Below are positions 2,366-40,700 of a stretch of DNA of 64,000 bases, piece by piece. Position numbers and translations under genes: made by a program. The first letter of the stretch is position 1. The number at the start of each line of letters is the position of its first letter. Below the pieces are notes generated by a model that made no database searches, was not told where the DNA came from, and saw nothing but the letters and a program-made list of their open reading frames with translations. The stretch is from a virus (lineage: Duplodnaviria; Caudoviricetes), in IMG/VR virus record IMGVR_UViG_3300026442_000101; one strand, written 5' to 3'.

Positions 2366-4618
2366 TTAAGGAGTTACGGTGCCGCCGCCGGAGTCGTCGC
2401 CGCCACCGGTCCCACCAGTACCACCGGTACCGCCAGTGCCTGCGTCGGTGCCACCGTCGCCAGCTTCAGCTTCGGTGAGTTTGACACGAAAAGGCAGGGT
2501 CTGCTCCAGGAGCTCAGCAACGCCTTCCACGTTCACCTTGACGATGATCGGGCAGAAGTTGTAGTGCTGGAAGCGCGGCTGCACTACAGCCTCGTTCACT
2601 GGACGGCCATCACGGGTAACCGAGATGGTGGAGACCAGGGTCGGAGTCAGCAGCATTGCGCCGGAGCTCAGAGCGTCGATGCCTTCGCCATCGCGAACGA
2701 TGACCATGTACATGACGTCGCGCAGACGGGCGTCCACGTCCGATTCCAGCTGGTACTTCAGACCAGCACCCAGGGTGCGGCTGTCGCCCGAGATGGTCAT
2801 GAAGCGCTCGATCTGCTTCGAGGTCACCAGACCGAAGCGGAACGGTTGAGCAACTTCACCGCCGTCCATGTAGCGGCAGGCGTTCTCGTAGTTGGTCTTC
2901 TGCAGGATGTCGAAGGCCACCGAACGCAGGGTGTTGACCAGGACCGCAACGCCGTTCTCGACGTTGGCGACGGTTTCCTGCGACTGGGCAGTTTCCATCA
3001 GGTCGACGGTCAGTTCCTGAACGTACGGGTTGACGAGGTAACGGCCGATACCTTCGATAGGCAGGGCGTTGATCTCGAAGTCGCCAGCGGTCATCTCGCC
3101 GCGCAGGCCACCGGTCAGACGCATCAGACGCTCGTGGTAACCGATCAGGGTACCCACAGCTTCGTTGTTGATGTAGCTGGAGACCGCGAAGGTCAGCCAG
3201 TCCATCACGGTCTGGTCACGGTTTTCGCTCAGTGGGTACGGAACGAAGAACGGCGAACGCTGACGGGTCAGCAGACGCTCGGTCACGTTACGGACGTTGA
3301 GCATCAGGCCCAGGTGACGGTGGTTGGTGTTGGTCAGACGAGCGTCCGGCCACCAGCCGACTACCTTCAGTTGTGCCAGGCCATCAACGATGGTCTTGCC
3401 GACGCCGGTGCCCAGCGGGATGCGCTCGCCAGCTTCGTTCTCGATGTACATCACTTCCATGGAAGTGGTGGACACGTCGATGGTGCCGCGCTCAACATCG
3501 CTGTTGCCGTTCAGACGGGTCTTCAGACGGACGCTGTAGCCACCATCTTTGATGGTGGTGAACACCGCACCAGTCAGAGCTTCGCCCTTGTAGTTGGTGG
3601 TGTTCTTGTCGATCTTCAGGGTGGTCAGAACGAAGTTCAGCGACAGTTGACGGCCGCCTTGTTCTGGCAGCTTCACGAAGCGGCTGAATGGCAGACCCTT
3701 GGTGTCGAACACGATGGTGTCGGCGCCCAGGCCCAGGTACACGTCGGCAACGCCGATGTTACGGTCCAGTGCTTCGGTGTAGTCGGCTTGACCAACGCGG
3801 CTGATCGAGTCGGACTGACCCAGGCCGAAGATGTTGACGGTCTTGTTGACCAGCAGAGCCGAGGTCTTGACGGTACGACGACCGGAGATGTAGTCGAACG
3901 GCTCGACAACGGATTCGGCGACGAAGTTGTCTTTCGACACGTCGGCGTAGCCCGGGATCAGCTGGGTGCTGTTGTCGTGCAGTACGGTGTAGTCGATCGC
4001 CGAGTCCATGACGCGGCGCAGGCCGAAGTCGGATTCGGAACCATCCAGCTCGTGGCGCAGGGTGTTCTGCACGTAGAGGTTCGGGATGGTGATGTCGATA
4101 CCGCCTTGCTCAGGAGTCAGTGGAACGGTGCGGTACACCATTTCCATGGCCGGGCCCTGGCGCGCGATCTTGTAGTTCAGACCGATGGAGATCGGCAGGT
4201 GATCGATCAGCGACTGGTTGTCGAAGGATTCCTTCGAGTATTCGCTGTCGAATTCCATGCCGTCGGCGTGAGCGTAACGCACACCAGCGCCCAGCTGCTT
4301 GCTTTCGGTCGAGATCTGCAGGTTCAGCAGGTCGGAAGGACGCTGGGCGAACGAGGCGATGAACGAGGCTGCTGCCATACCGGCCGGGTTCTTGTAACCG
4401 GCTTCGGTGTTGCCTGGCTCGAGGACGCTTTTCAGGTTCTCGGCAACGCTCGACAGATCGACGCGGCTTTCGAAGGAACCTTCTTGCAGCCACTTGATGG
4501 CGTCAGCGCTCTCGGTGGAATAACCACCGGAGTGAATGTTTTCCTGGATCTGGGTAGCCAGCACGCCAGAGCCGGCGCCGAAGTTGCCGCCGGGCTTGTT
4601 GAGTTTGATGACACTCAT
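2366..4618 (-). CDS. Major capsid protein (phiKZ gp120-like)
   Basis: 750 aa with very strong codon bias; propeptide with S-x-E protease sites (YSTES, GSFES, YSKESFDNQ); adjacent to DnaB as in phiKZ; Gly/Thr-rich C-terminal tail. Confidence 0.9.
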   Translation of the reverse strand: MSVIKLNKPGGNFGAGSGVLATQIQENIHSGGYSTESADAIKWLQEGSFESRVDLSSVAENLKSVLEPGNTEAGYKNPAGMAAASFIASFAQRPSDLLNLQISTESKQLGAGVRYAHADGMEFDSEYSKESFDNQSLIDHLPISIGLNYKIARQGPAMEMVYRTVPLTPEQGGIDITIPNLYVQNTLRHELDGSESDFGLRRVMDSAIDYTVLHDNSTQLIPGYADVSKDNFVAESVVEPFDYISGRRTVKTSALLVNKTVNIFGLGQSDSISRVGQADYTEALDRNIGVADVYLGLGADTIVFDTKGLPFSRFVKLPEQGGRQLSLNFVLTTLKIDKNTTNYKGEALTGAVFTTIKDGGYSVRLKTRLNGNSDVERGTIDVSTTSMEVMYIENEAGERIPLGTGVGKTIVDGLAQLKVVGWWPDARLTNTNHRHLGLMLNVRNVTERLLTRQRSPFFVPYPLSENRDQTVMDWLTFAVSSYINNEAVGTLIGYHERLMRLTGGLRGEMTAGDFEINALPIEGIGRYLVNPYVQELTVDLMETAQSQETVANVENGVAVLVNTLRSVAFDILQKTNYENACRYMDGGEVAQPFRFGLVTSKQIERFMTISGDSRTLGAGLKYQLESDVDARLRDVMYMVIVRDGEGIDALSSGAMLLTPTLVSTISVTRDGRPVNEAVVQPRFQHYNFCPIIVKVNVEGVAELLEQTLPFRVKLTEAEAGDGGTDAGTGGTGGTGGTGGGDDSGGGTVTP

Positions 4619-7286: not shown

Positions 7287-7429
7287 GCTGCTGCTCCTGC
7301 GGCTTCGGCACGTCCCTCGGCTCGCGCCTTGGCGATTACTTCTGCTCGCTCTTGAGCATTCTTGTGCTTGAGATGATTGATGTACATCCCAAGGCAGATG
7401 CCGATTGCGAGAATAGTTACTTCTTTCAT
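7283..7429 (-). CDS. Small membrane-anchored hypothetical protein
   Basis: MKEVTILAIGICLGMYIN...; GAGG RBS; hydrophobic N-terminus. Confidence 0.55.
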   Translation of the reverse strand: MKEVTILAIGICLGMYINHLKHKNAQERAEVIAKARAEGRAEAAGAAA

Positions 7430-7446
7430 TTTGACCTCCTCGGTCG

Positions 7447-7677
7447 TTAAAGAAATCGATTGAGTTCGGTCACCCATGCCTTAACTAGGTGATAGGGCGA
7501 ACTTGTGTTGTGAATTGCGATGTGGCGGATCTTGGATTTGATACTGGGGTTAGCCAGCACTTGTCGACCGATGTCGGTTTTCTTGGCTGCATCCAGATCA
7601 GCTTTAAGTTGAATCATCAACTGCCTGATCTTTTCAGCATCCTGTACGGTGCGTTCTGCGGTGCTCATGGTGCGCAT
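7447..7677 (-). CDS. Hypothetical protein
   Basis: 76-aa ORF in a tightly packed operon. Confidence 0.5.
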   Translation of the reverse strand: MRTMSTAERTVQDAEKIRQLMIQLKADLDAAKKTDIGRQVLANPSIKSKIRHIAIHNTSSPYHLVKAWVTELNRFL

Positions 7678-7862
7678 TCATCCAGAAGGCCGGCTTTGTT
7701 AGTGTCGAGCAGAACACCAGCTTCAGCGCGAAGGTTATTGTTGATACAGTCGCCCGGCCGATCGAGGATATCGAAGAGCAAGGCGACGTTAGCACAAATC
7801 ACCAACACAGCTGCAAGAGCCGTGATGGTGAGGTCTTTTGGTTTATCATCCGTGAAGGTCAT
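7665..7862 (-). CDS. Small membrane hypothetical protein
   Basis: MTFTDDKPKDLTITALAAVLVICANVALLF...; ATGA overlap with the upstream ORF. Confidence 0.5.
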   Translation of the reverse strand: MTFTDDKPKDLTITALAAVLVICANVALLFDILDRPGDCINNNLRAEAGVLLDTNKAGLLDECAP

Positions 7863-11715: not shown

Positions 11716-12519
11716 ATGTTTCTGTTACCAGGCGGATCGGAGCAGGCTCTGGTCGACGCCATCAATGCCGTAAACGAACTGCCGACTCCACTTGCCCCCG
11801 ATGACCTGTATCTAGGCAAGTTCACCCCAGTGCCTAACGGCCAGCCGGGTGAGATCTCGCTACCTGTAGTGGCGATGTACAACAGCGACTTCGAAGGCTA
11901 CGTTCGGTTCACGTACAACCGCCTTGATCTCGGCAAGGTCTACGGTACTGTAAAGCCGTCGATCAGACGTGTCGGTTATCCGACCCTCTACAGGTTGCTG
12001 CCGATCATCAACGAGACGCTGGGTCTTTCTCTCACCGAGAACGACGTGGTCGATATCTCGATCACCTGGCTCAACGATAACGAGCAGATCAACATCCCGA
12101 TCGTGGCGAAAGCCGAATCGCCGGTGTATGAAGGTCAGTTCGTAGTCGAGTACGTCCGCGTACGTCCAGAGCTTGCCACCATCGTCTTCCGCGACCTCGA
12201 CGTGCTGAAGCACCCGATCGATCCTGCGCTAGGTAAGAAGTCTATTGCCATGCACACCTGGTCGATGGACTTCACCGATTTCCAATCGGAACTCCTCCTT
12301 CGAAACGGTACGTGGTGGGATATCACTCGCGTCAGGAGAGTGATGGATAAGTTCGGCATGCCTAACTGGCCGCAGGTGCCGACTTCGCCGTGGATTTCTG
12401 TACAGTCCACCAAAGACGTCCCGACTGCCAACAAGTCGTTCACTCACGTTATCGTACAGCGGGATGTCAATCTGCCGGATATGGTTGGCGACGCTTACAT
12501 TCATTTCAACCGTAGCTAA
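11716..12519 (+). CDS. Virion structural paralog, two-domain (YxRL plus HxN-ending C-domain)
   Basis: YNRLDL; ends GDAYIHFNRS. Confidence 0.7.
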   Translation: MFLLPGGSEQALVDAINAVNELPTPLAPDDLYLGKFTPVPNGQPGEISLPVVAMYNSDFEGYVRFTYNRLDLGKVYGTVKPSIRRVGYPTLYRLLPIINETLGLSLTENDVVDISITWLNDNEQINIPIVAKAESPVYEGQFVVEYVRVRPELATIVFRDLDVLKHPIDPALGKKSIAMHTWSMDFTDFQSELLLRNGTWWDITRVRRVMDKFGMPNWPQVPTSPWISVQSTKDVPTANKSFTHVIVQRDVNLPDMVGDAYIHFNRS

Positions 12520-14149: not shown

Positions 14150-15097
14150 ATGCCTCTTTACAAAAAGCCCTCGAAAGACTTGGTGTACGACCTCATCAAC
14201 GAGGCGAACCCACAGCTTGAAATTCCAGCCTCGGCACTTAACGTGTCGCTCGGTGTGCCGGCAGCCATTGCCGGTACGTCCTGGCCGGCAAACAACACCA
14301 ACATCGTTCTATCCCCAGCGCCAGGCAGCGGCGACTTCATCGGTCGCCAGACCGTCAGCTACCGTCGCCTGGATCTGTCGGCCTTGTTCCGTGGCCAGAC
14401 CATCCTGATCAAGAAATTCAAGTCTACCGCCAGCTCCAGCTCGGGCACTTTGATGTACACCGTCTATCAGCTGTTGGCGGACATCAACTCTCGGTACGGG
14501 ATGAACCTGACCGAAGACGACGTCAACAATGCCAACATCCTACGGGGCAGTACCCTGGAAGACGGGCAGTACACCACTACCGTTACAGTGAGCACCAAAG
14601 CGACCTCGCTCGGTTATACCGGCAGCTTCTCTCTGAAGTGGCTGAACACCAAGCAGTCGTTGGAAGACATGATTACTGTCCGCACGCTGGGCGGTCGTCT
14701 CTTCCCGGGCGGTAACGACTTCAGTGGGGCGCACAAAGAAATTCTCGCCATGGCCGGTTACGGTATCGATGGCAGCGATGCACTTCGTCGAACCAGCTCG
14801 ACCTGGAACGGTACGGCTACGTCAGGAGTCGTCGCCGCAGCGCACCAAGTGTGGCTGTCCGCCATGCTGGATGATATCAACATCAAGTGCGGCACCAGCT
14901 ATAAATGCACCAACGGCGGATCGTACCTGACCACCAACGAGTTCTTCGGCATGAACTACACGATCGTAGTCCTGCCGCACGCCAACTACCCGGACGCGAA
15001 TACGACAGACTTCAACCGTCTGTTCATCATCACCGCGCCGGCGAACTGTCCATGGGCGGTTGGTGATCTGTACGTCCACGCCAACTACCCGTTCTAA
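14150..15097 (+). CDS. Virion structural paralog, two-domain
   Basis: YRRLDL; ends GDLYVHAN. Confidence 0.7.
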   Translation: MPLYKKPSKDLVYDLINEANPQLEIPASALNVSLGVPAAIAGTSWPANNTNIVLSPAPGSGDFIGRQTVSYRRLDLSALFRGQTILIKKFKSTASSSSGTLMYTVYQLLADINSRYGMNLTEDDVNNANILRGSTLEDGQYTTTVTVSTKATSLGYTGSFSLKWLNTKQSLEDMITVRTLGGRLFPGGNDFSGAHKEILAMAGYGIDGSDALRRTSSTWNGTATSGVVAAAHQVWLSAMLDDINIKCGTSYKCTNGGSYLTTNEFFGMNYTIVVLPHANYPDANTTDFNRLFIITAPANCPWAVGDLYVHANYPF

Positions 15098-15110
15098 GGA
15101 TAGGTGAACC

Positions 15111-15986
15111 ATGAGTTTCCTCACTCCGTCCAGACAGGACATTTTGAACTACGTCAACTTGGCGAACAGTACCTCGTACGTGTTGGCTGACGTGACGTTC
15201 GGTACGCCTGCGCCGACCGAAGGTAGTTGGCAGGGCAACGTTACCGATAAGAACACCGTCGTCCGCATCACTGCGGCTGCAGGCGGTACGTTCCAGGGCA
15301 GCGCGGTTGTCGTTTACGATCGCCTCAATCTGGCGAGCCTTGCGAACATCAAGGGTTTCAAGCCCCGCGTTACCGCGCCAGCGACCACGCACGATCTACT
15401 CGCGTCGATCAAGTACTTCACCGGCTTGAGCTTGTCGGTCAATGACATCGAAGCTACCCCAATGACCGACAATGGCAACGGCACCTATTCCGGTACCCTG
15501 ACTGCCAAAGCTGGATCGTGGGGATGGTACGGGAGTCTGCCGATCACTGTGCAGAAGGGCGGCGATCGCCTGAGCGACATCATTACCGATGTTACGCTCG
15601 ACGGCCTGAACTACCCGACGACGTCGGATCAGGAAATCTACGGGGCACTCTACATGTACCCGTACGACATGACCCCATACTTCAACACTCTGATCGATCT
15701 GGAAGACGGCGTAGCGCTTACCACCGAGCAGGTCAATGCCTTGGTGTTGGCGTTCAACGCGGTGGACGTTTCGTCCGGTAAGGGTCTGTGGACTGGTAGC
15801 GGTGCTGCCACTACCTGGACGCTGGGCGGTGCCAAGTGTGTGCGTAACGGCCTCAACGGCTCCGACCTGCCAACCAACCCTGGCTACAAATACGTGGCTG
15901 TGATCGAATTGCGTGCTGACGTCACCACTCCTCGCGGCGTGATGTACCTGCACTACAACGACTACACCGATCCTAACGCCGTTTAA
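15111..15986 (+). CDS. Virion structural paralog, two-domain
   Basis: YDRLNL; LDGLNYP; ends GVMYLHYN. Confidence 0.7.
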   Translation: MSFLTPSRQDILNYVNLANSTSYVLADVTFGTPAPTEGSWQGNVTDKNTVVRITAAAGGTFQGSAVVVYDRLNLASLANIKGFKPRVTAPATTHDLLASIKYFTGLSLSVNDIEATPMTDNGNGTYSGTLTAKAGSWGWYGSLPITVQKGGDRLSDIITDVTLDGLNYPTTSDQEIYGALYMYPYDMTPYFNTLIDLEDGVALTTEQVNALVLAFNAVDVSSGKGLWTGSGAATTWTLGGAKCVRNGLNGSDLPTNPGYKYVAVIELRADVTTPRGVMYLHYNDYTDPNAV

Positions 15987-21994: not shown

Positions 21995-22519
21995 TTAACC
22001 CTCGGCGTCGAAGCCGTCCAGGTCAGTCACGGAAGCTGCTTCGTTCAGAGGAACGTCAGCGTCCGGTACGGACAGAACAGCAGCGAAGGTGCCGGTGTAC
22101 AGCAGGCTGCCAGCGTCGGCAACAACATCGGCCGAACCGTTGGTGTCTTCGTCAACCGGGCGAACGATGTTCGACAGGCTGATTTCCGATTCGATCAGAC
22201 CCAGCGCGGTAGCGACCTTGGTCAGGACCTGTGCGTCGGTATCGCCTTCAGCGATGACCACAGGGATGGCCTTGGCAGTAGCGATACCTTCGCCAGCAGT
22301 CAGCGCCCGACGGGTGTAGCTGAAGGTCTGGGTGCCGCTGAAGCCTTGGTTGTCGACAGCGGTGTAGGTGATGCTGGTGTTGCGACCACCAGTGCCAGCT
22401 TCGCTGACAACCGAGCCAGGAGTGATCTGGGCGGCGGTAGCGTTCAGGCTGGGGTTAGCAGCGTTGATCAGTGCCAGGACGTTAGCCGCGGCAGTGATGG
22501 CGATATTGACTTTAGCCAT
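21995..22519 (-). CDS. Virion structural paralog (YxRR domain), probably abundant
   Basis: GRNTSI...FSYTRRAL; ends VTDLDGFDAEG; codon bias like the capsid gene. Confidence 0.7.
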   Translation of the reverse strand: MAKVNIAITAAANVLALINAANPSLNATAAQITPGSVVSEAGTGGRNTSITYTAVDNQGFSGTQTFSYTRRALTAGEGIATAKAIPVVIAEGDTDAQVLTKVATALGLIESEISLSNIVRPVDEDTNGSADVVADAGSLLYTGTFAAVLSVPDADVPLNEAASVTDLDGFDAEG

Positions 22520-22571
22520 GATGTTGAACCCTTCATGTTTGCGGTTAGGGACAGTCCTAACATAGCATCAG

Positions 22572-22615
22572 CGGCATAAGCCCCTACACCAGAGCCGTGA
22601 AGCCTGGTGTAGGGG
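22572..22615 (-). terminator. Hairpin plus TATGCCG ending the 620-nt non-coding unit
   Basis: CCCCTACACCAG...CTGGTGTAGGGG, then CTTATGCCG. Confidence 0.7.
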
Positions 22616-22619
22616 AATG

Positions 22620-23240
22620 CTCAAGGATCAGAAAGGCAACTACCCGACAATGGATACCTGGGGAGGAGATGCGCGGCTGCTACGCGCTCCATCGTCGTTA
22701 GGTCGACCAAGACTTTTGTCGCCCTTATCTCCGTTTCAGTGAGGTCAATACCCACCCATCAGATCGCCTATAATAGACGTGCACATCCATTACAAGCATC
22801 TGAAGGCTGCGTACTACGAGCCGCGTTGGTCGGCAGTCCATTTCCGTCTTTTACGATCATCGCTTCAGCCCACTGGACTGCGGGTCGAACCCGGAGCAGC
22901 GGTCCACTAGACCGACGGAGCGTGACGGCGTACCACGATTAACTGCCAAGCGCGAACATCGTGCAACAACTTGAGTACTCCTTGAAGCGTTGGCGTGCTT
23001 AACGAGTCCCCCGTACCCTTCGAAACTCTAATCACCGGCCAGGGGTCAGAGAGTCTCTCATATACTCCAATAGTCCAGGGTGAGGTTATTGGAGATGCCC
23101 TAAGGCATATCAAACACAAGAGTGTTTCACGCCATGTTTAACGTCTTGCGATCATCAGTGATAAGACGATCAGAGGACCAGCTGCCTTAGACAGTCAGGC
23201 GGCCAGCGAGGGAGTCCGGGATGCGCGGCTGGTCCTCTGA
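22620..23240 (-). ncRNA. Putative ~620-nt structured non-coding RNA
   Basis: No credible ORF; many hairpins; 13-bp 5' stem; 12-nt terminal direct repeat; upstream GTATTATAT element; downstream terminator. Confidence 0.6.
23108..23163 (-). ncRNA. Putative type I hammerhead ribozyme
   Basis: UAUCA-CUGAUGA-(23-nt stem/loop II)-GAAA-CAC-UCUU-GUG-UU^UGAUA; all invariant core nucleotides are present, and stems I and III are Watson-Crick. Confidence 0.65.
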
Positions 23241-23263
23241 TATAATACTTTCATGTTTCGTAA

Positions 23264-23971
23264 TTATTCACGGATAGTTCGCACCATGTACTCGTTGGTC
23301 ATCTTGATGACGTTACCTAACTTAGTAGCCGCGTTGATGCGCTGGCAGAACTCTTTGAGGATCGGTCCACCGGACTGGGATTTACAGTTGAAGGTCAGTT
23401 GGATCATGCCGGCGAAGATACGGACTTCGATAAGCGGCACCGGCAGCAGGGTGGCTTGGATCACCTTGCCGTCGATATCGGTACGATATAGCACGTAATG
23501 GTAATCGAGATCACGAGTGCTATCAAGTACGACTTGGTTGATGCCGTAGAGGGCTTGCCGTATCGCATCACGATCGGCAGTGTCGGTGTCGTTAAACACT
23601 ACGCTGATACTTCCGCCAGTATCCTCACCACCAACCGAGACTACCTGCATACGCAGCAGGGCGTTAATGACATCACGATTGGCTTTGAGGTGATCCATGC
23701 TCGAGTCGAACTGTAACGCAGTGATCGCTAAGCTCGTGTCCACGCGGCGTGGTACGTTCTGTTCCTTGATGACGATCTCGACTTTACTGCCATCAAGGCT
23801 AGTCCAGTTACGGATATCCTCGCCAACGAGGTTGCGCTCTGCACGCAGATCCTCGCTGGTGATCTTAACCTCGTGACCGTACTCCTGCATCAGAGCACGC
23901 TCGATGATTGCCATGACGTGACTTTTACCGACGCCGGTCGAACCTTTAACGATGACTTCGAGCTTTTCCAT
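23264..23971 (-). CDS. Hypothetical protein with N-terminal P-loop-like motif
   Basis: VIVKGSTGVGKS at the N-terminus; no clear Walker B. Confidence 0.55.
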   Translation of the reverse strand: MEKLEVIVKGSTGVGKSHVMAIIERALMQEYGHEVKITSEDLRAERNLVGEDIRNWTSLDGSKVEIVIKEQNVPRRVDTSLAITALQFDSSMDHLKANRDVINALLRMQVVSVGGEDTGGSISVVFNDTDTADRDAIRQALYGINQVVLDSTRDLDYHYVLYRTDIDGKVIQATLLPVPLIEVRIFAGMIQLTFNCKSQSGGPILKEFCQRINAATKLGNVIKMTNEYMVRTIRE

Positions 23972-24341
23972 TGGCTGCGATCTCTCTTTTGATGTATGAC
24001 CATTTGTTCATGATGCCCGCCGCAGCGCCGAGCGCTACGTCATGACAATCATTGTATTCAAACGCTACCTCCCTGAGACCAGGTCGTAGGGCTCCGACCT
24101 GCTTGTCGTCACGCTTAGCTTCGAGGACGACACAGTAGACCTCGTGTTTGACGAGGTGCGCCACGTACCGGGCAGCGTCACGCCACAGCTTGTTAGGGAC
24201 ATCATGGCAGGTCATCTTACGGACCTCATTGAGATAACCCTCAACCTTTAAGATGAGGACGTATTCGTCGCCAAGGAGTCGAAGTAAGTCTCGAGGTATT
24301 TGATGCCGCACACAGTCCAGCAGAAATGCTTCCAGTTCCAT
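23946..24341 (-). CDS. Hypothetical protein
   Basis: 131 aa with GGAGG RBS. Confidence 0.6.
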   Translation of the reverse strand: MELEAFLLDCVRHQIPRDLLRLLGDEYVLILKVEGYLNEVRKMTCHDVPNKLWRDAARYVAHLVKHEVYCVVLEAKRDDKQVGALRPGLREVAFEYNDCHDVALGAAAGIMNKWSYIKREIAANGKARSHR

Positions 24342-24419
24342 GACGACCTCCGTTTATTCATTACATAGCCGTCATTGTTAAATGTATACGAACGGCATAA
24401 AGACCCGGCCGAAGCCGGG

Positions 24420-24665
24420 CATCTTGATCTTCATGTTGCCCGTCGTTGTACATGCGCATCCGGCTAGAGGCAGCGAACCGCCCGATAGGTTTCAGCTACA
24501 AGCATTGATAGGCGCGTTCAGCCTCAGGAAGAACGCTAAGGGGTGGCGTTGCCGCCATTGGGGTTCCATTCCTCAGGGAGCTGGACGAAACGGACGTCCT
24601 TACTGTGAGTTCAAGATCTAAATTGTGAAAGAGCTCAGAGAACAACTTGTGAGGGCATTCTCTAC
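24420..24665 (-). ncRNA. Putative ~245-nt structured RNA
   Basis: Closing stem ATCTTGA/TCAAGAT; GGCG-GCAA-CGCC and GGCGG-TTCG-CTGCC tetraloop hairpins; TATG at the 5' end; hairpin+TTTATGCCG at the 3' end. Confidence 0.45.
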
Positions 24666-24748
24666 ATAGTATATTGACATCATCCGTAAGTATTCACGCA
24701 AAAAAAAAAGAAAGTAGCACAGCCCGGCTTTCGCCGGGCTGTATGCTG

Positions 24749-25072
24749 TCAGTCTTTGCGACGTCTGAAGGATGTGATTGCTTTCTTGATGTAGGAGAGG
24801 TTCTTGATCTCGGAATACGGGACCGAGTTCTGCCGACAGAAATCTCTGTAGGCGATCAACTCCTCCATCTTCGAAAGCTGCACGTAGTGACTGATCTCAC
24901 CATCGGGTAGATAGTGGCGGATATAGATCATGTCGTCCTTGTGCTTACTTGGGTCAGCAGCTTCCCAGATGAGTCGCTCCTTACCGTGGATCGTATCTAC
25001 GAAGAGGTGGACGACAGTGCCGTCCTCATCCCCGTAGTGATCCTGACTGTGCTTGATGTACGGCTGTGTCAC
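24749..25072 (-). CDS. Hypothetical protein
   Basis: 107-aa ORF (GTG start) overlapping its neighbour by 4 nt. Confidence 0.55.
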   Translation of the reverse strand: MTQPYIKHSQDHYGDEDGTVVHLFVDTIHGKERLIWEAADPSKHKDDMIYIRHYLPDGEISHYVQLSKMEELIAYRDFCRQNSVPYSEIKNLSYIKKAITSFRRRKD

Positions 25073-25374
25073 GTAACTACCTCGTAGACTTTGTTGTACA
25101 GATCACGGATCTCCTTGAGGACCCGATCGCGATCACCTTTGTAGTCATGCGAGATGATTGTCTGCATGAGCCACGCTTCTGCCGCAGTGAGCTTGCGCTC
25201 GATATCTGCGATCTTCTCCAGGATCTTCTTGTGAAGAAACTCGATCTCCTCATCGATCTTCTTCTTATCCGCCTCGGTCCGAGGAGTTGGTTTGTATCGC
25301 TGGTAAGCTGCGTAACCTCCACCAGTGATCACGCCAGCTGCTATCAGAGCGGCTACTAACTTTGCTGCGTTCAC
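25069..25374 (-). CDS. Membrane-anchored coiled-coil hypothetical protein
   Basis: N-terminal hydrophobic segment; GGAGG RBS. Confidence 0.6.
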   Translation of the reverse strand: MNAAKLVAALIAAGVITGGGYAAYQRYKPTPRTEADKKKIDEEIEFLHKKILEKIADIERKLTAAEAWLMQTIISHDYKGDRDRVLKEIRDLYNKVYEVVT

Positions 25375-25383
25375 GGTTACCTC

Positions 25384-25722
25384 CTAGCCTACATTAGGCA
25401 TGACGATAAGTTTGATGACCTTCAGCTGATCCTGGATGCTCTCCAGTTCGGTAGGCGACAATTTGTCGAGTTCGCCCGTGGTGCTCTGGACAGTCAGCTT
25501 AGCAAGGAAATCTACCTGGACATCGCTCAGCAAACCGCTGCCATTCAGGTTGACGAACAGGCTGATCATCTGAAGATCCACAATGATCGAAGTGACTTTC
25601 ATCTTGGCGAGAGTTCTGTCTTCGCTTTCCTTTGTAGCTTTGATGGACTTGTAGGCTGCGTAACCCAGACCACCAACGATTGCACCCAGAGCAGCGATAC
25701 GGACGATATTACCAAAGTTCAT
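25384..25722 (-). CDS. Membrane-anchored hypothetical protein
   Basis: MNFGNIVRIAALGAIVGGLGYAAYK...; GAGGAGG RBS; N-terminal segment similar to 25069. Confidence 0.6.
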   Translation of the reverse strand: MNFGNIVRIAALGAIVGGLGYAAYKSIKATKESEDRTLAKMKVTSIIVDLQMISLFVNLNGSGLLSDVQVDFLAKLTVQSTTGELDKLSPTELESIQDQLKVIKLIVMPNVG

Positions 25723-25761
25723 TGCGCGACCTCCTCGGTCATTGAGATTGTTCATCGCGAC

Positions 25762-25773
25762 AATGTGTGACTG
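25762..25773 (-). promoter_or_regulatory. Promoter-like motif CAGTCACACATT
   Basis: Motif copy between a terminator and the ATG at 25722. Confidence 0.6.
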
Positions 25774-25834
25774 AAAAATAGTTAAATGCGGCATATACCC
25801 CACCACCGGCGGAGCGACCGGTGGTGGGGATCTA

Positions 25835-26061
25835 TGTTGGTTCACACTTGGGGCTGAGTGGTCACCCCACAGAGTTCGGCTTGTCCTCACGACGCTGAAC
25901 TCTGCAGGCTGTGCACTCTAGGCACTAGCTAGACTCCGACGGACCCGCGACCGTCGTAGCCTAAGGTCGGAGAGGACTCCCGACCACGGTGATCCAACGA
26001 TGGGAGTGTGCACACCGTTGGATTAAACTGAATCCATTCGCCCGAAATAATTCAGTCTAAC
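25835..26061 (-). ncRNA. Putative ~230-nt highly structured RNA
   Basis: Six consecutive hairpins whose G-U pairs work only on the minus strand; GTATTATATG directly 5'; hairpin+TATATGCCG 3' (25789-25829). Confidence 0.65.
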
Positions 26062-26078
26062 ATATAATACATCACATG

Positions 26079-26599: not shown

Positions 26600-26926
26600 T
26601 TACTTGATCACGCTAAGAGTCGGTGGGTGCGAACTCTTTCGGAACCATGCTGTCCACGCCGCTTTGAAGGACGGAAATCGGTCCTTGGTTACCTTACGGC
26701 CAAAGCGGTCAGTCAGCACATAACCAGCATCATCCAGTTGGTTGAGCAACCAGGCGACACCATGACTCGCGCCAGCATTATAAATGTTCACTTCTTCTGG
26801 CGTGTCGATGATTTCGGTGATGTTATCGCCGACGTCTGCGATCTTACCTCGGAAGCCGTGAACAAGCGCAGCCGCAGACTCTGCTCGGTAAGCGTCCCAC
26901 ATGAGTTCTTCAAGCGGAGATTTCAT
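26600..26926 (-). CDS. Hypothetical protein
   Basis: 108 aa, TGATG-coupled to the upstream gene. Confidence 0.55.
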   Translation of the reverse strand: MKSPLEELMWDAYRAESAAALVHGFRGKIADVGDNITEIIDTPEEVNIYNAGASHGVAWLLNQLDDAGYVLTDRFGRKVTKDRFPSFKAAWTAWFRKSSHPPTLSVIK

Positions 26927-28239
26927 CAGTCTTCCTCAGAATCGACTTGATCAGTGGTGGTCAGATGGGTTAGCCAGCGGCAAAGATTGTGCTGCACATC
27001 TTCGTCACTCAACTGACTGGTCAGACGACCGGTCATACACATCGGAATGCTGATGGTCGGCATCAGGCCGCGATCGATCAGGTGGACATTCATCACCCCA
27101 TGTCGAGTACAGTTCACCGATACGCCAGTGATGTATTCGGCGAACTCGCAGATTGCGTTACGCATCTCTTCCATGAGACGCTCCATGACCTTCTGTGCGA
27201 TCTCATCACCGTAAGGGACGCCGATGGTATCCATCAAGGTGGTGAAATGCGGGATGAAAGTCGCGCCGTTATACACGACGTTGAGCGTGTCGAGGTTGAG
27301 TTCGGACATCGTCGACAGAGTCGCGCGGTAGATGCGGTTGAGGATGTGTCGATATTCCGGATCCGAAGCTTCGATAGTTTCATCGAACGACTTCACGATG
27401 ATCTCCGGCCCGAAGGTGGTTGGGATGCCACTGAAAATCCTGACCAACTCACCGAACGTAACGTAACCGTCCGAAGCGAACTGCGTATCGCGACTGAGCC
27501 TGTCGAGGAACATGACGTGACTGAGTGGTCGAGTTTCCGTCGCGTAACTCATCTGCTCCAAGGTATCATGAGGAGCTGCGTCGAGGTCGAACTCTTTCGC
27601 AACACCGTCGTATGCCCGCAGGATCTCGTCCAGCCATTCTCTCGAAGACTCGGTGAGTACCGGCACCAGTCGCACCGTAGTCGGAACGCCAGTCAGGTTG
27701 AGTGCAGGGCTACCTATCCGAGTGTGTGCTCCTAACACCGCCTCGGAGATCGTACGGTTGATGAGGTCGCCCGGACGAAGGCTGTAGAGTCTCTCATCGA
27801 TGCGATGAGTCGGCGGGACGACGTGGTCATCAGTGATCGTCTGCACGAGAGGACCATGCGGTGTGTTGAGCTGACGATAGGTAGTCACGCGGTCGAAGTA
27901 CAGCTTGGCATCGTGATCGACCAACCCACCCATGCTGACGACACTGGCGTCTTCAGTGAAGCCCGTAACGACAGCAGTCTGCTTACCGAACCCTGGACCA
28001 CCGACATTGCTCTCCATGGTCAGGGTGAACGCGTAGCGCGGTTGATCGTTGCCGCCCGGGATGGTGACTTCCCGCCCGTCGCGCAATGAGATCGACAGAG
28101 CGTCGTCGATCAGTTCGTCACGTTGGATATGACAACGCATACCTGGAGTGAGAATCGGATAAGCGACCAGCTTTGGAACTGGGCTCAGCTGGCGGAAGTT
28201 GATGGAGACAGCATCGTAGGTTTCGATCTGAATATGCAT
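26926..28239 (-). CDS. Probable homolog/paralog of the phiKZ nvRNAP sigma-like subunit gp68
   Basis: Collinear motifs RYAFTLT..GFT..D..LYFDRVT..LRPGDL..S..WL..IL..Y..FL..L.RD....GYVTFGEL match my recollection of gp68; not verified by a search. Confidence 0.6.
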   Translation of the reverse strand: MHIQIETYDAVSINFRQLSPVPKLVAYPILTPGMRCHIQRDELIDDALSISLRDGREVTIPGGNDQPRYAFTLTMESNVGGPGFGKQTAVVTGFTEDASVVSMGGLVDHDAKLYFDRVTTYRQLNTPHGPLVQTITDDHVVPPTHRIDERLYSLRPGDLINRTISEAVLGAHTRIGSPALNLTGVPTTVRLVPVLTESSREWLDEILRAYDGVAKEFDLDAAPHDTLEQMSYATETRPLSHVMFLDRLSRDTQFASDGYVTFGELVRIFSGIPTTFGPEIIVKSFDETIEASDPEYRHILNRIYRATLSTMSELNLDTLNVVYNGATFIPHFTTLMDTIGVPYGDEIAQKVMERLMEEMRNAICEFAEYITGVSVNCTRHGVMNVHLIDRGLMPTISIPMCMTGRLTSQLSDEDVQHNLCRWLTHLTTTDQVDSEED

Positions 28240-28991: not shown

Positions 28992-31900
28992 ATGTTTGCA
29001 GGAATCAAAAGAAGGCTGGGACTGGTGGAAGTCACCACCACCCCGACCTATATCGTGGTGGAAGGATTCAGTACCTTATCGTTCACCAAGGACATGTATC
29101 GCGTATGGGGTAACAACACCATCGCCAAGTACATGTTCTCTCAAGTACGGTCGAGCGAATTCAAGCTGCGACACTTCTTCGGCCTCGACTTCCTCTACAT
29201 CTGCCGTCGCCTCTACGACGAGAAATACACCAGCATGCCAAAGCGTATCCTGGGTAAGATCATCGAGGAGCTCGAAGAGAAGACCTGGCTCGGCCAAGTC
29301 GGTAAGGACATCACTCCGATCACTGACATCAGTGTAGCCGACAAGACCGTAAGCTTCACCCTGAAGCCATTCCAGCGTGAGTTCGTGGAAGTGTTCGGGA
29401 AGATGGTCCCAGCCTACCGTCTGAAGGGCTACATGCTCGATGCAGGTGCAGGTACCGGTAAGACCGTCACAGACCTCGTTATCGCAGCGTCCCTGCATGC
29501 CAACAAGGTAATCATCGTCACGCCAAAGAACGCCGCAGAGCGCGTCTGGGAAGCTACCATCAAGGACATCGTCCTGAAGAAGCAACCCTACTGGCTGTCG
29601 GTGGGTAACAAGCCGCCTAGCGTCAACGACTACTACTTCATCTGCCACTACGAGTCGCTCGAGCAGATGCTGGCGTTTGTCAAGGCAAACCCACAGGCGT
29701 TCAAGAACACTTTCGTCATCCTTGACGAGTCGCACAACTTCAACCGCATCGCATCGGACCGTACCCAGTTCTTCATCGAGCTGTGCAACCTCCCTCAGGT
29801 TACCTACAACCTCTGGGCTTCTGGTACCCCGATCCAGGCGCTGGGCACTGAGTGCATCCCGTTCCTGAAGTGTGTTGACCCGCTGTTTGACAGCTACTGC
29901 GAAGAAGCCTTCCGTAAGATCTACGGTCGTGACGCTAAGCGCGCTAACGACATCCTGCGTAACCGCATCGGTCACCTCAAGTATCACGTACCTCAACAGG
30001 ACGTGGTCCATACCGAGGTTATCGTTGAGACCGTCAAAGTCTCGATGCCTAACGCGAAGGATTACACCCTCGAGAACATCGGTAAGCTGCTGCGTGAGTT
30101 CATCGACAAGCGTCGTGAGCATTACGCCAAACACCGACTGGACTATGTCAAGTTCTACGAGGATGGCCTGAAGGTCTTCAAGCAGACGCTCAAGACTGAC
30201 CAGCAGAAGCGTCAGTTCGAAGCGTACCAGTCTGCATTCAAAGTCATCGCCGGTCGTTTTGATCCGCAGACGATGAAGGCTGAAGCACAGCTCTGTAACC
30301 AGTACGAGCTCAAGACCATCATCCCGGTCCTGAACAATCCGCTGAAGAACAACTTCAAAGGTGCTCGTTCGGTTATCAAGTACGTCGACCTCAAGATCAT
30401 GGGCGAGGCACTCGGCACCATCGTTGGCGGTATGCGCTCGAAGTGTCACGTCGAGATGGTCAAGCACATCGACTTCAACAAGTACATCGACGACGCTGAG
30501 AAGAAGACGCTGATCTTCACCAGCTACGTCGAGGTCCTCGAGTCGGTGGCTGATATCGTCGACAGCAACGGCTATAAGTCTGGGCGCGTCTACGGCGCTA
30601 CCAACAAAGACTTGGCATCGATCGTGGGTCAGTTCTACAAAGACGAAGACCTCAATCCGCTGTGCGCTACCTACCAGTCACTCTCGACTGCGGTACCTCT
30701 CACTGCGGCCAACACGATCCTCATGATCAACCAGCCGTTCCGTGACGCTATCCGTACACAGACCATCGCTCGTGCAAACCGTCTTGGTCAGGACAAGAAC
30801 GTCTACGTGTTCGACTTCCTGCTCGACACTGGCGACATGCCGAACATCTCGACGCGCAGTAATGACATCCTGCTCTGGAGTCAGAACCAAGTGTCGCAGA
30901 TCCTTGGCGTGAATAACGTCGACGTGGATACGCTGGCATTGGAATCCGCGTCCGTTGATGAGTACTCGACTGAGGTGTTCGATCTGCTTGTCGACGCTGG
31001 TGACCTGCTCGCACAAATCCTCGGTATTGACAAGTTCCTTGACCGCATCGGGGCTCGTACGAACTTGACTAACCAAGGCCGGACAGGTTGGGGTAACGAA
31101 GCTTACTCGAAAGAGAGTGTGGGCTTTGATGTCCCGCATTACCTGTACCACGGCTCGATGTATAAGCAGGGCGAACTCATGCCTGGCTTCCAGCGCTCCG
31201 GTGAGCTGGTTCGTTGGGATGGCGTGGAGTCGAACGAGTGGCTGTACGCAACCACCGATCGTGAAGATGCGATCATGTTGGGGATTGGCTCGGCTCTTGA
31301 GAAAGAGTTCCGTGTCGATCGATATTCGTACGATGCCAAGACTCGTAAGCTGGTCATTACCTCGCCGGACAACATCACTCCCGCTGACGTCAGAAAGGCC
31401 CAGGTCTTCCTGTACACCATCAAGGGTGAGAACTCTGACGAGTGGCTGCCGAACTTCAATCAGCAGAACGGCATCGAGAACGAGTATAAGACCCAGAACA
31501 CTATCGATGAATCGATCATCAAGACCGAGCAAGTCGATATCAGTAAGGTGCTCGCCAACTACCGTCTCGAGATCGTCAAGTCGAAAGCGGAATACTCGAC
31601 CGAAAGCTTCTCGCAGGTGATGAGTAACCTGAAGAAGATGATCTTCGGCGATAATCGCGAAGACAAGAAGAAACACCTACCGACTAAACCTTGGATGAGC
31701 ACCAAGGAAATTAAAGCGCTGCTTGAATACATCGATGATTACTTCGGCAACGATTCCTGGCTGTCTAAACAACAGTTCAACGTCGACGTCCCAAGTAACG
31801 GCATCATCCAGGCGTTGTCGTACGACGGTAAGTTCACGACCACCAATCCGATGTCGGCTATCAATGGTCATCTCAATGACTACAAGACGAAGGCTGCCAA

Positions 31901-32471
31901 GTTTGCGTCCCAACTCAAAGAGATGGACAGTGCGGTGCAGCGGGTTTACGGCAAGTATGAGAAACCACTCATCGCCGCTGCCAAGGCTGATCAGCACGAC
32001 AAGTTTGAAGAGCTGATCAGAGAAGCGGTCAAGGCCTACGACGACATCCCGGTGCCGATGGCCAAGATGACTCCCGTCAAGGTGATCGGCAGTGTCGAGG
32101 TCTACTTCGACAAGAACGACCGCTGGATGTTTGGCGGTAACGTTGAGGGTAAGGAAACTGAGGTCAAGTCCCCTGCCCGCATTCCGGCACTCGATCGCAA
32201 CGGCTTTATCGCTGCGGTTAAGATCATCCGCGAGTGCTTGAAGATGCGCGAAAGCAGTGACTTCTATCAGTCATGGCTGGACTTCGAAGATGGTAGTGAT
32301 TTCTCGAATGTAATCCATGAGTACGACGAAATGCTGTACATGGATTACTACGATCAATACTACCACCAGACCGTAGGGCAAGCCATCGTCGAAGGGTTCC
32401 CTGATTCTTCCTCTGTTGGTGGTGATGTCATCATTGCGTTGATGGCCTGGATGGAACGCAGTATCAAGTAA
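28992..32471 (+). CDS. Virion SF2 (SNF2/DEAD-like) helicase fused to an ART-like domain and a head-protein-like domain
   Basis: DAGAGTGKT, ILDESHN, SGTP and QTIARANRLGQ motifs in aa 1-640; then LALES/YSKES; LYHGS..L.PG..LYAT..ENEY; YSTES; C-terminal domain. Confidence 0.8.
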   Translation: MFAGIKRRLGLVEVTTTPTYIVVEGFSTLSFTKDMYRVWGNNTIAKYMFSQVRSSEFKLRHFFGLDFLYICRRLYDEKYTSMPKRILGKIIEELEEKTWLGQVGKDITPITDISVADKTVSFTLKPFQREFVEVFGKMVPAYRLKGYMLDAGAGTGKTVTDLVIAASLHANKVIIVTPKNAAERVWEATIKDIVLKKQPYWLSVGNKPPSVNDYYFICHYESLEQMLAFVKANPQAFKNTFVILDESHNFNRIASDRTQFFIELCNLPQVTYNLWASGTPIQALGTECIPFLKCVDPLFDSYCEEAFRKIYGRDAKRANDILRNRIGHLKYHVPQQDVVHTEVIVETVKVSMPNAKDYTLENIGKLLREFIDKRREHYAKHRLDYVKFYEDGLKVFKQTLKTDQQKRQFEAYQSAFKVIAGRFDPQTMKAEAQLCNQYELKTIIPVLNNPLKNNFKGARSVIKYVDLKIMGEALGTIVGGMRSKCHVEMVKHIDFNKYIDDAEKKTLIFTSYVEVLESVADIVDSNGYKSGRVYGATNKDLASIVGQFYKDEDLNPLCATYQSLSTAVPLTAANTILMINQPFRDAIRTQTIARANRLGQDKNVYVFDFLLDTGDMPNISTRSNDILLWSQNQVSQILGVNNVDVDTLALESASVDEYSTEVFDLLVDAGDLLAQILGIDKFLDRIGARTNLTNQGRTGWGNEAYSKESVGFDVPHYLYHGSMYKQGELMPGFQRSGELVRWDGVESNEWLYATTDREDAIMLGIGSALEKEFRVDRYSYDAKTRKLVITSPDNITPADVRKAQVFLYTIKGENSDEWLPNFNQQNGIENEYKTQNTIDESIIKTEQVDISKVLANYRLEIVKSKAEYSTESFSQVMSNLKKMIFGDNREDKKKHLPTKPWMSTKEIKALLEYIDDYFGNDSWLSKQQFNVDVPSNGIIQALSYDGKFTTTNPMSAINGHLNDYKTKAAKFASQLKEMDSAVQRVYGKYEKPLIAAAKADQHDKFEELIREAVKAYDDIPVPMAKMTPVKVIGSVEVYFDKNDRWMFGGNVEGKETEVKSPARIPALDRNGFIAAVKIIRECLKMRESSDFYQSWLDFEDGSDFSNVIHEYDEMLYMDYYDQYYHQTVGQAIVEGFPDSSSVGGDVIIALMAWMERSIK

Positions 32472-40217: not shown

Positions 40218-40700
40218 TTAAGGTTTTCTATGCCGTTTATTGGGATTGATCTTCGCAAACATGTTTGCGATATGCTCGTTCCAATGACGGACGTGTCTGA
40301 ATATTTTGACCAGCTCTTTCGCATCGGTCATTGTGATTACGTGCTTGGTAGCAATGTTCTTGAGCTTGAAATAAGCCTCAGTGGACATAACAACCTGATT
40401 AGGATTGTAGTTCCGGTTACGGCGGCGATAGGATACAACGATACCATCACAACCAATGTGGCGAACTAGCGCTGCCAGATTGGGGACGCTATCGACAGCC
40501 TCGTTTAACCGCCTGGCGACTTTGACAGGGTAGTCACCGTCCAGCACTTCCAGCGTGCCGCAGACGTGCATCATGGCAGCCATGAAATGCTGGTCTTCCA
40601 TCTTCTCCATCTGTTCGCCGGACGGATGCTTAACCAGTCGGGTGATTTTCAGGCCGATGGACTTATGATACAGTTCGATCTGAACGTCGTAAGTTTCCAT
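40218..40700 (-). CDS. Hypothetical protein
   Basis: METYDVQIEL...; downstream of a terminator. Confidence 0.55.
   Translation of the reverse strand: METYDVQIELYHKSIGLKITRLVKHPSGEQMEKMEDQHFMAAMMHVCGTLEVLDGDYPVKVARRLNEAVDSVPNLAALVRHIGCDGIVVSYRRRNRNYNPNQVVMSTEAYFKLKNIATKHVITMTDAKELVKIFRHVRHWNEHIANMFAKINPNKRHRKP

Follow-up and report, generated by a model that had tools for sequence, protein, structure and literature searches.

What does a phage keep in long stretches of DNA that hold no credible gene for a protein? The question is raised by a locus in the IMG/VR virus record IMGVR_UViG_3300026442_000101, of which we analysed one piece of 64,000 nucleotides (nt), hereafter the window. Three stretches of its minus strand (22520-23263, 24342-24748 and 25723-26078) contain no credible open reading frame (ORF), and an earlier description made from the letters alone, hereafter the sequence-only reading, had taken them for the units of a candidate small-RNA system. 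We propose, with a probability of about 0.6, that the three gaps are genes for non-coding RNAs (ncRNAs) of new families, specific to a small clade of soil phiKZ-like jumbo phages. Unit 1 (22581-23239) corresponds to a multi-domain structured RNA of ~660 nt, unit 2 (24403-24665) to a conserved non-coding stretch of ~263 nt, and unit 3 (25798-26061) to a 264-nt row of hairpins; all units and the features described in and around them lie on the minus strand.

Judged by its sequence, the window belongs to a divergent phiKZ-like jumbo phage known solely from soil metagenomes, in which contigs of ~246 kb carry proteins identical to those of the window. Its 1159-residue helicase (28992-32471) is 36-42% identical to the helicases of pPa_SNUABM_DT01, Eowyn, Noxifer and the Erwinia Ea35-70 group, and its tail array of DUF7941 paralogues likewise fits a phage of this type. 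Close relatives are scarce. The 235-residue protein encoded next to unit 1 has two other clusters only among 5.8 billion proteins, at 45% and 42% identity, and a homologue search with the 101-residue protein encoded between units 2 and 3 led to the identical three lineages, namely the window, L002/L003 and L004/L005, on which all comparative results of this work rest. Both other lineages have the same gene order, with the three gaps at the same places.

The comparison of these lineages excludes a coding role for the units. Indels are mostly of 1-2 nt and break the frame, substitutions lack a 3-nt periodicity, and no ORF is common to the three lineages, and the three ORF-free minus-strand units are all real; the gap at 22580-23263 is the longest within the window. 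Across lineages the gaps are 74-93% identical (74-88% for gap 1, 88-93% for gaps 2 and 3), with invariant blocks of more than 100 nt, and the flanking coding sequences are 50-89% identical. Because the four-fold degenerate sites of seven flanking genes are only 60-63% identical, the units, which exceed this neutral rate, are under strong purifying selection.

What is being selected becomes apparent from the pattern of substitution. Compensatory pairs and the RNAalifold consensus energy were scored against column-shuffled alignments. Unit 1 has 24 compensatory pairs (24-25), against a shuffle mean of 6.5 and a maximum of 12, and an energy of -220 against -154±6.6; unit 3 has five, against a mean of 0.24 and a maximum of 2, with an energy of -126 against -84±5.8; and in unit 2 the signal is weak, with three pairs against a mean of 0.75 and a maximum of 4, and an energy of -78 against -59±4.5. 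In units 1 and 3 the minus strand outscores its reverse complement, which holds more broken pairs, and several one-sided substitutions lead to G-U pairs that are possible only in a minus-strand transcript. The sequence-only reading had named synteny and covariation across related phages as a check, and a lack of structural conservation as a result that would speak against it; the gaps turn out to be syntenic in all lineages, and structure is conserved, through compensatory changes, in units 1 and 3. Its description of the three bodies as densely base-paired holds for two of them, unit 3 with z -7.0 and unit 1 with z -5.2, whereas unit 2 taken as a single sequence (z -0.64) does not fit it. On these alignments, units 1 and 3 can be regarded as structured RNAs and unit 2 as a conserved element that is non-coding and for which the evidence of structure is modest.

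Unit 1 is the most elaborate of the three, with ~200 pairs in total and compensatory pairs spread over at least eight helices. Its 5' domain (23066-23239) consists of a 17-base-pair (bp) closing stem and four hairpins. The first ~136 nt are almost invariant, with three substitutions across lineages, all on one strand of the closing stem, and two of these are G-U wobbles that pair only in minus-strand RNA. The domain is followed by an invariant internal TATG (23059-23062), lying within GTATATGAGAG. Further downstream, a long hairpin of ~30 bp (22739-22824) shows compensatory changes at two pairs and an invariant tip (alignment A5, model R2), where the palindrome GUGCAC is found (22779-22784). 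The unit is closed by a GC-rich terminal hairpin of 13 bp (22581-22615) with two compensatory pairs, followed by CUUAUG and lacking a canonical U-tract.

A second type of evidence on unit 1 comes from RNA libraries. The stretch is contained in 24 soil metatranscriptome runs (24 study records, possibly one sampling campaign), and in two of them, X15 and X24, which come from two studies, the assembly shatters inside unit 1. The resulting deep zone (22865-23048) is covered by very deep short contigs of 60-72 nt, located at 22865-23043 in run X15 and at 22873-22944 in run X24, with depths of 22,383-25,000, against 340-960 for the long contigs flanking the zone and 10-28 for the error-variant contigs beside the deep ones. 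This part of unit 1 is therefore 25-70 times deeper than its flanks. Since phage DNA cannot give a local excess of this size, and no other genome carries the sequence, the depth points to a very abundant RNA that comprises at least ~180 nt of unit 1, and from contig depth unit 1 RNA is apparently very abundant. The limits of the shattered zone bracket G23059 and the hairpin end near 22878; the one contig end that carries an adapter, at 22965, is too weak a sign to build on. As a separate observation, RNA libraries of many soil samples from 2018-2019 yield a nearly complete assembly of the phage (contigs up to 234 kb), which would reflect either a phage bloom with heavy transcription or libraries carrying DNA.

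The body of unit 3 is invariant nearly throughout, and almost all of its variation is concentrated in one hairpin (25866-25908). This hairpin holds all the covariation of the unit, since five pairs in a row differ among the three lineages at both of their positions, and G-U changes occur as well. GUGCAC occurs twice, in the loop of the second hairpin (26008-26013) and at 25911-25916, both sites being invariant in the relatives, and the unit ends with a terminal hairpin (25798-25829) followed by TATGCCG. Unit 2 is 88-91% identical to the other lineages, depending on the alignment, with scattered single-nt indels that exclude coding, and it too ends with a terminal hairpin (24403-24420) followed by TATGCCG.

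The signals around the units are best understood in the light of phiKZ, whose late promoter, used by the non-virion RNA polymerase (nvRNAP), is TATG with its G as +1, and whose middle promoters add an AAanTTACc motif centred near -24 (PMC4666361). TATG is present and conserved at 26061-26064, 24665-24668 and 23059-23062, and behind each terminal hairpin. By the phiKZ rule, transcription would start at G26061 for unit 3 and at G24665 for unit 2. The internal TATG of unit 1 (as TATATG) could act as a second, late-type start with G23059 as +1, giving a shorter transcript, and unit 1 possibly consists of two overlapping transcripts.

The same rule changes the meaning of the unit ends. A hairpin followed by TATGCCG had been described as the end of each RNA; the hairpin does close each unit, but since the phiKZ TATG has G as +1, TATGCCG is read here not as an RNA end but most likely as the promoter and start of the next messenger RNA (mRNA). 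The TATG at 22575-22578, after unit 1, is the likely promoter and +1 of a 174-residue DUF7941 gene (ATG at 22519), the one at 25792-25795, after unit 3, the likely promoter of the 112-residue gene, and the one at 24396-24399, after unit 2, that of the 131/235-residue operon. TATGCCG occurs 13 times in the window against 6.0 expected, and TATGCC follows a GC-rich hairpin at about ten places between genes, in front of protein genes. The arrangement of GC-rich hairpin, 2-4 nt and (T)TTATGCC(G) is seen at 2352, 10983, 22578, 24399, 25795, 28256, 43362, 43966, 54697 and 63369. Such a module is probably the junction between two units, with the terminator of the first followed by the phiKZ-type TATG promoter of the second.

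Upstream of units 1 and 2, in all three lineages, there is a common box, GTGAATAnTTACG-N16-TAT(G/C), at -20 to -32. Its copies are GTGAATAATTACG (23259-23271), 16 nt before TATC and overlapping the stop codon of the 235-residue gene, and GTGAATACTTACG (24685-24697), 16 nt before TATG 24665-24668 and invariant except at the position 'n'; across lineages the box is conserved as (C)GT(G/A)AATAnTTACG. At this spacing the box core occurs three times in 64 kb against 0.35 expected, and a weaker third copy, also on the minus strand, is found at 40696. Being similar to the middle-promoter consensus AAanTTACc, with one extra or changed base, GTGAATAnTTACG resembles a phiKZ middle-promoter element. Of the AT-rich 5' elements pointed out by the sequence-only reading, TATACTATG is present in front of unit 2 and invariant across lineages. 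The identical GTATTATAT at units 1 and 3 does exist as exact copies (23240-23248 and 26062-26070) but is lineage-specific and not conserved: there are exactly two copies, three against 4.5 expected when one mismatch is allowed, which is no more than chance, and the relatives carry ATATAGTATG at unit 3 in its place. A scan for sigma-70 promoters and intrinsic terminators revealed no enrichment and confirmed only the terminator upstream of unit 2 (24700-24743), a canonical 11-bp stem with T10 that ends the upstream 112/101/107-residue operon; a loose start motif, TAT[GC]-N0-2-AGA[GC], is not enriched in the window.

The units do not belong to any described family that we could recognize. Rfam 15 (4227 models, including riboswitches, introns, RNase P, transfer-messenger RNA (tmRNA), 6S, ROOL, GOLLD, HEARO, pRNA and hammerheads) gave nothing at the gathering threshold over the whole window, and with the limit relaxed to E ≤ 10 on short sub-windows of the units it returned nothing beyond chance fragments (11-20 bits); ARAGORN found 0 transfer RNA (tRNA) or tmRNA genes in the window. 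Searches with megablast and blastn against 50,697 phage records gave no DNA match to the region or the units. Four scans of IMG/VR viral contigs, using two flanking proteins, the helicase and an 18-mer of unit 1, returned one distant phage only (L001), with a helicase 41% identical and nothing similar to the units. A 20-nt unit 1 pattern had eight matches in genome contigs, all of ~21 nt and in the number expected by chance, and a unit 1 22-mer found one locus only in metagenome contigs, identical to L004. Covariance models built from two unit 1 domains (R1 and R2) reached best E values of 0.2-0.6, equivalent to noise, on five whole related jumbo-phage genomes. Distant relatives, too, have gaps of 300-640 nt without ORFs close to the helicase gene, at 7421-7830 and 9606-9916 in L001 and at 2709-3221, 11872-12369 and 14722-15361 in pPa_SNUABM_DT01 (L024), and their sequence is unlike that of the units.

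In the model that we propose, a phage-encoded RNA polymerase would transcribe each unit. Units 1 and 2 would start from the shared middle-promoter-like box, GTGAATAnTTACG-N16-TAT[G/C], and unit 3, perhaps with the internal start of unit 1, from a late-type TATG alone, whose G would be +1. The RNAs would all terminate at the GC-rich hairpin, to which the TATGCCG promoter of the following protein gene is fused, and because this promoter is a separate one, each RNA would be an insulated unit rather than the only leader of the next gene. The products would be a large RNA of ~660 nt from unit 1, of which at least ~180 nt would accumulate far above the neighbouring phage sequence, a 264-nt string of hairpins from unit 3, and a less tightly folded RNA of ~263 nt from unit 2. 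The motifs hint at a late timing. As to function, the option that we consider most likely, at somewhat under even odds, is that of stable RNAs acting in trans by their shape, as scaffolds or sponges that bind proteins of the phage or the host in the middle and late stages of infection.

How far the three units belong together is a different matter. The sequence-only reading saw in them a coordinated system, which is not borne out by their bodies: there is no shared body motif and no complementarity between units. The links that are seen are the conserved co-location, the box common to units 1 and 2, and GUGCAC. This palindrome had been counted once in unit 1 and twice in unit 3, and is indeed found at 22779, 25911 and 26008. 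Three of the seven GTGCAC sites of the window fall within the ~1.2 kb of the units, against ~0.13 expected (Poisson P ~3e-4), all three are invariant, and in the loci of the relatives three of four and three of three sites are these same ones. The pattern is suggestive of a functional palindrome, for example a kissing loop, and units 1 and 3 may self- or cross-associate through it; in the predicted folds, loops accommodate GUGCAC only in part. Multimerisation by loop-loop pairing is known among structured viral RNAs, as with the pRNA of phi29 and the dimerisation site of HIV-1, and GUGCAC is one natural HIV-1 kissing palindrome. With respect to the units these are an analogy only, with no homology and no Rfam pRNA match. 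In the window as a whole GTGCAC is depleted (7 observed against 21 expected by dinucleotide shuffles); avoidance of a restriction site is not claimed, as GTGCAC falls outside the twelve most depleted palindromes under a higher-order expectation.

Several observations weigh against the proposal of dedicated ncRNA genes. The depth evidence comes from assembled contigs and not from reads, and as such cannot fix the ends, strand or level of an RNA; runs X7 and X4 hold the whole stretch unbroken in one contig; and units 2 and 3 lie inside long contigs, whose depth is uninformative on their level. With three lineages, the covariation amounts to few independent events, and the large invariant parts are silent on structure. 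Unit 2 has no significant single-sequence fold, and by structure its strand is ambiguous. Short intergenic spacers of 43-115 nt are mostly 80-93% identical (one of them 61%), so that conservation by itself cannot single out the units; what sets these apart from ordinary regulatory DNA is their length (263-660 nt) together with their substitution pattern. Over 13000-33960, compared with L004, short spacers (mostly 0.80-0.93) are generally above most protein genes (0.49-0.89). The terminal hairpins of the units lack a canonical U-tract, and read-through into the next gene is possible. At its 5' edge unit 1 has TATC (23239-23242) in place of TATG, and there is no terminator between it and the 235-residue gene; for these two reasons unit 1 could be a 3' untranslated region (UTR) or extension of that gene. 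Comparison of the three unit bodies detected no shared k-mers or antisense matches above chance, and the neighbouring proteins, searched against Pfam and PHROGs, include no RNA-related family that would provide a partner protein.

The main rival explanation, unlikely in our view and yet the one to be taken most seriously, is that the units are long cis-acting leaders. A distal promoter would produce a 5' UTR of 260-660 nt whose hairpin either terminates or, depending on conditions, lets the polymerase through into the downstream gene, the proximal TATGCCG would provide another late promoter, this one constitutive, and the accumulated RNA would be a by-product of attenuation. Precedents exist in the closest known RNAs, the abundant short RNAs, 5'-UTR-derived or intergenic, that lie between a transcription start and a terminator upstream of genes in phiKZ and 201phi2-1, and that were found by ONT-cappable-seq, differential RNA-seq and Grad-seq (10.1101/2023.10.13.562163 = PMC10914365; PMC11512511). 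In phiKZ, 17 candidates derived from 5' UTRs arise by premature termination, some of them abundant (10.1101/2023.10.13.562163), and one of the 11 small RNAs of 201phi2-1 lies upstream of a tail gene (PMC11512511). They resemble the units in their setting, a jumbo phage with its own RNA polymerases, and in their layout of a phage promoter (a predicted one for the units), a structured RNA and a hairpin before an often structural gene. Every unit is immediately followed by a gene of the same orientation, strong U-tracts are missing from the terminal hairpins, and the 5' UTRs behind TATGCCG are likewise highly conserved. Against this, the presence of a promoter motif right behind each hairpin means that the downstream genes need no distal start, whereas the phiKZ and 201phi2-1 RNAs share their start with the downstream mRNA. 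Those RNAs measure 71-250 nt, compared with ~264 and ~660 nt here, and unit 1, with its many covariation-supported helices, is far larger and more elaborate than described leaders. Near-total invariance over 100-200 nt is unusual in attenuators, and no riboswitch or leader family was matched in Rfam. The two sets also differ in their foundation, which is mapped transcript ends for the known RNAs and covariation for the units, and BLAST detects no similarity among the 50,697 phages.

The proposal of dedicated ncRNA genes also admits a bolder form, to which we attach little weight. Unit 1 would represent a new class of large structured RNAs, comparable in scale to OLE, ROOL and GOLLD; processed or internally started to yield a hyper-abundant core, it would assemble via GUGCAC, both with further copies of itself and with unit 3, into an RNA or ribonucleoprotein particle required from middle to late infection. 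The dedicated box would co-regulate units 1 and 2, and the locus would be an RNA 'island'. ROOL (RF03087) and GOLLD (RF01998) are large ornate RNAs, often carried by phages, that self-assemble by RNA-RNA contacts (PMC5737381; 10.1101/2024.12.08.627333). Unit 1 is similar to them in exceeding 500 nt, in having many helices and no ORF, and in carrying a conserved self-complementary motif; it differs in that their covariance models give no match at E ≤ 10, and in host range and phage type.

For the roles of the RNAs the sequence-only reading had offered a packaged or scaffold RNA, decoys or regulators, all of which stay hypothetical here. It is improbable that the RNAs serve as decoys or inhibitors against host RNA-sensing or RNA-cleaving defences, RNases or ribosomes, which would be a special case of trans action. 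Highly structured, hairpin-rich RNAs, one of which appears to reach a very high level, would suit such a role. They bear, however, no likeness to tRNA, CRISPR repeats or any Rfam family, and as the targets of decoys evolve fast, variation would be expected, whereas the units are among the most conserved sequences of the region.

Less probable still, unit 1 might be a ribozyme that processes itself, or what is left of an intron or mobile RNA. By inspection, a hammerhead-like arrangement can be drawn at 23108-23163, with CUGAUGA, GAAA and a U at the cleavage position in type I order, a stem I of 5 bp (UAUCA/UGAUA) and a stem III of 4 bp, all of which resemble the type I hammerhead (RF00163) by eye; its cleavage could free the abundant 3' part, and the fact that only part of unit 1 is very deep in the RNA libraries does suggest processing. 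Stem II, however, is non-canonical, with only 3 bp and a U-U at 10.1/11.1, the same bases also form a stable alternative hairpin in predicted folds, and the region is invariant, which makes covariation uninformative. The hammerhead and intron models of Rfam found no match in a 701-nt search of unit 1 even at E ≤ 10, the cut would be expected at 23112/23113, above the positions at which the deep zone has its upper edge (~23043-23094), and an intron would lack flanking exons.

The least credible explanation is that the stretches act as DNA, as a replication origin, packaging site or protein-binding arrays with inverted repeats as DNA features, for although they are long, ORF-free, rich in inverted repeats and highly conserved, in a clade whose intergenic DNA is generally conserved, the compensatory changes in them keep helices and not sequence, the one-sided changes in units 1 and 3 keep G-U pairing on the minus-strand transcript alone, with more pairs broken in the reverse complement, and the excess depth of unit 1 in RNA libraries is inexplicable by phage DNA.

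The genes around the units complete the picture of the locus, which the sequence-only reading had placed between a tail array and a GNAT/gp68-like/HD block. The tail array is there, as a row of DUF7941 'virion structural' paralogues that fills 11.7-22.5 kb, and so is the GNAT gene; the labels 'gp68-like' and 'HD', on the other hand, found no Pfam or tblastn support. The 437-residue protein labelled 'gp68-like' (26926-28239, minus strand) has as its sole match PHROG 3141, a family without assigned function, and has no Pfam family and no tblastn match among the 50,697 phage records at E ≤ 1e-5. The units themselves are separated and non-contiguous, with five small protein genes between them. The fast-evolving 235-residue P-loop protein (23264-23971, minus strand), which adjoins unit 1, is 42-49% identical overall, with 75 N-terminal and 14 C-terminal residues almost invariant and a hypervariable middle, and its conserved C-terminal codons overlap the promoter-like box of unit 1; its AlphaFold2 model is unusable (pLDDT 44). 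Between units 3 and 2, the 112-residue (25384-25722, minus strand) and 101-residue (25069-25374, minus strand) proteins show, by eye, an N-terminal hydrophobic, anchor-like stretch followed by charged helical sequence; neither gave a family match.

All together, we consider the units to be real, new and clade-specific families of phage ncRNA, among which that of unit 1 is large and apparently hyper-abundant. Few structured RNAs longer than 500 nt are known besides ribosomal RNA, introns and RNase P, and several of these few are phage-borne and unexplained. If the proposal is true, unit 1 would be a good structural and functional target, supported by covariation and apparently very abundant in nature. 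The module of hairpin and TATGCCG and the box GTGAATAnTTACG-N16-TAT(G/C) would be testable transcription signals for this phage group, and the inventory of small RNAs known from phiKZ and 201phi2-1 would extend to much larger RNAs in their uncultivated soil relatives.

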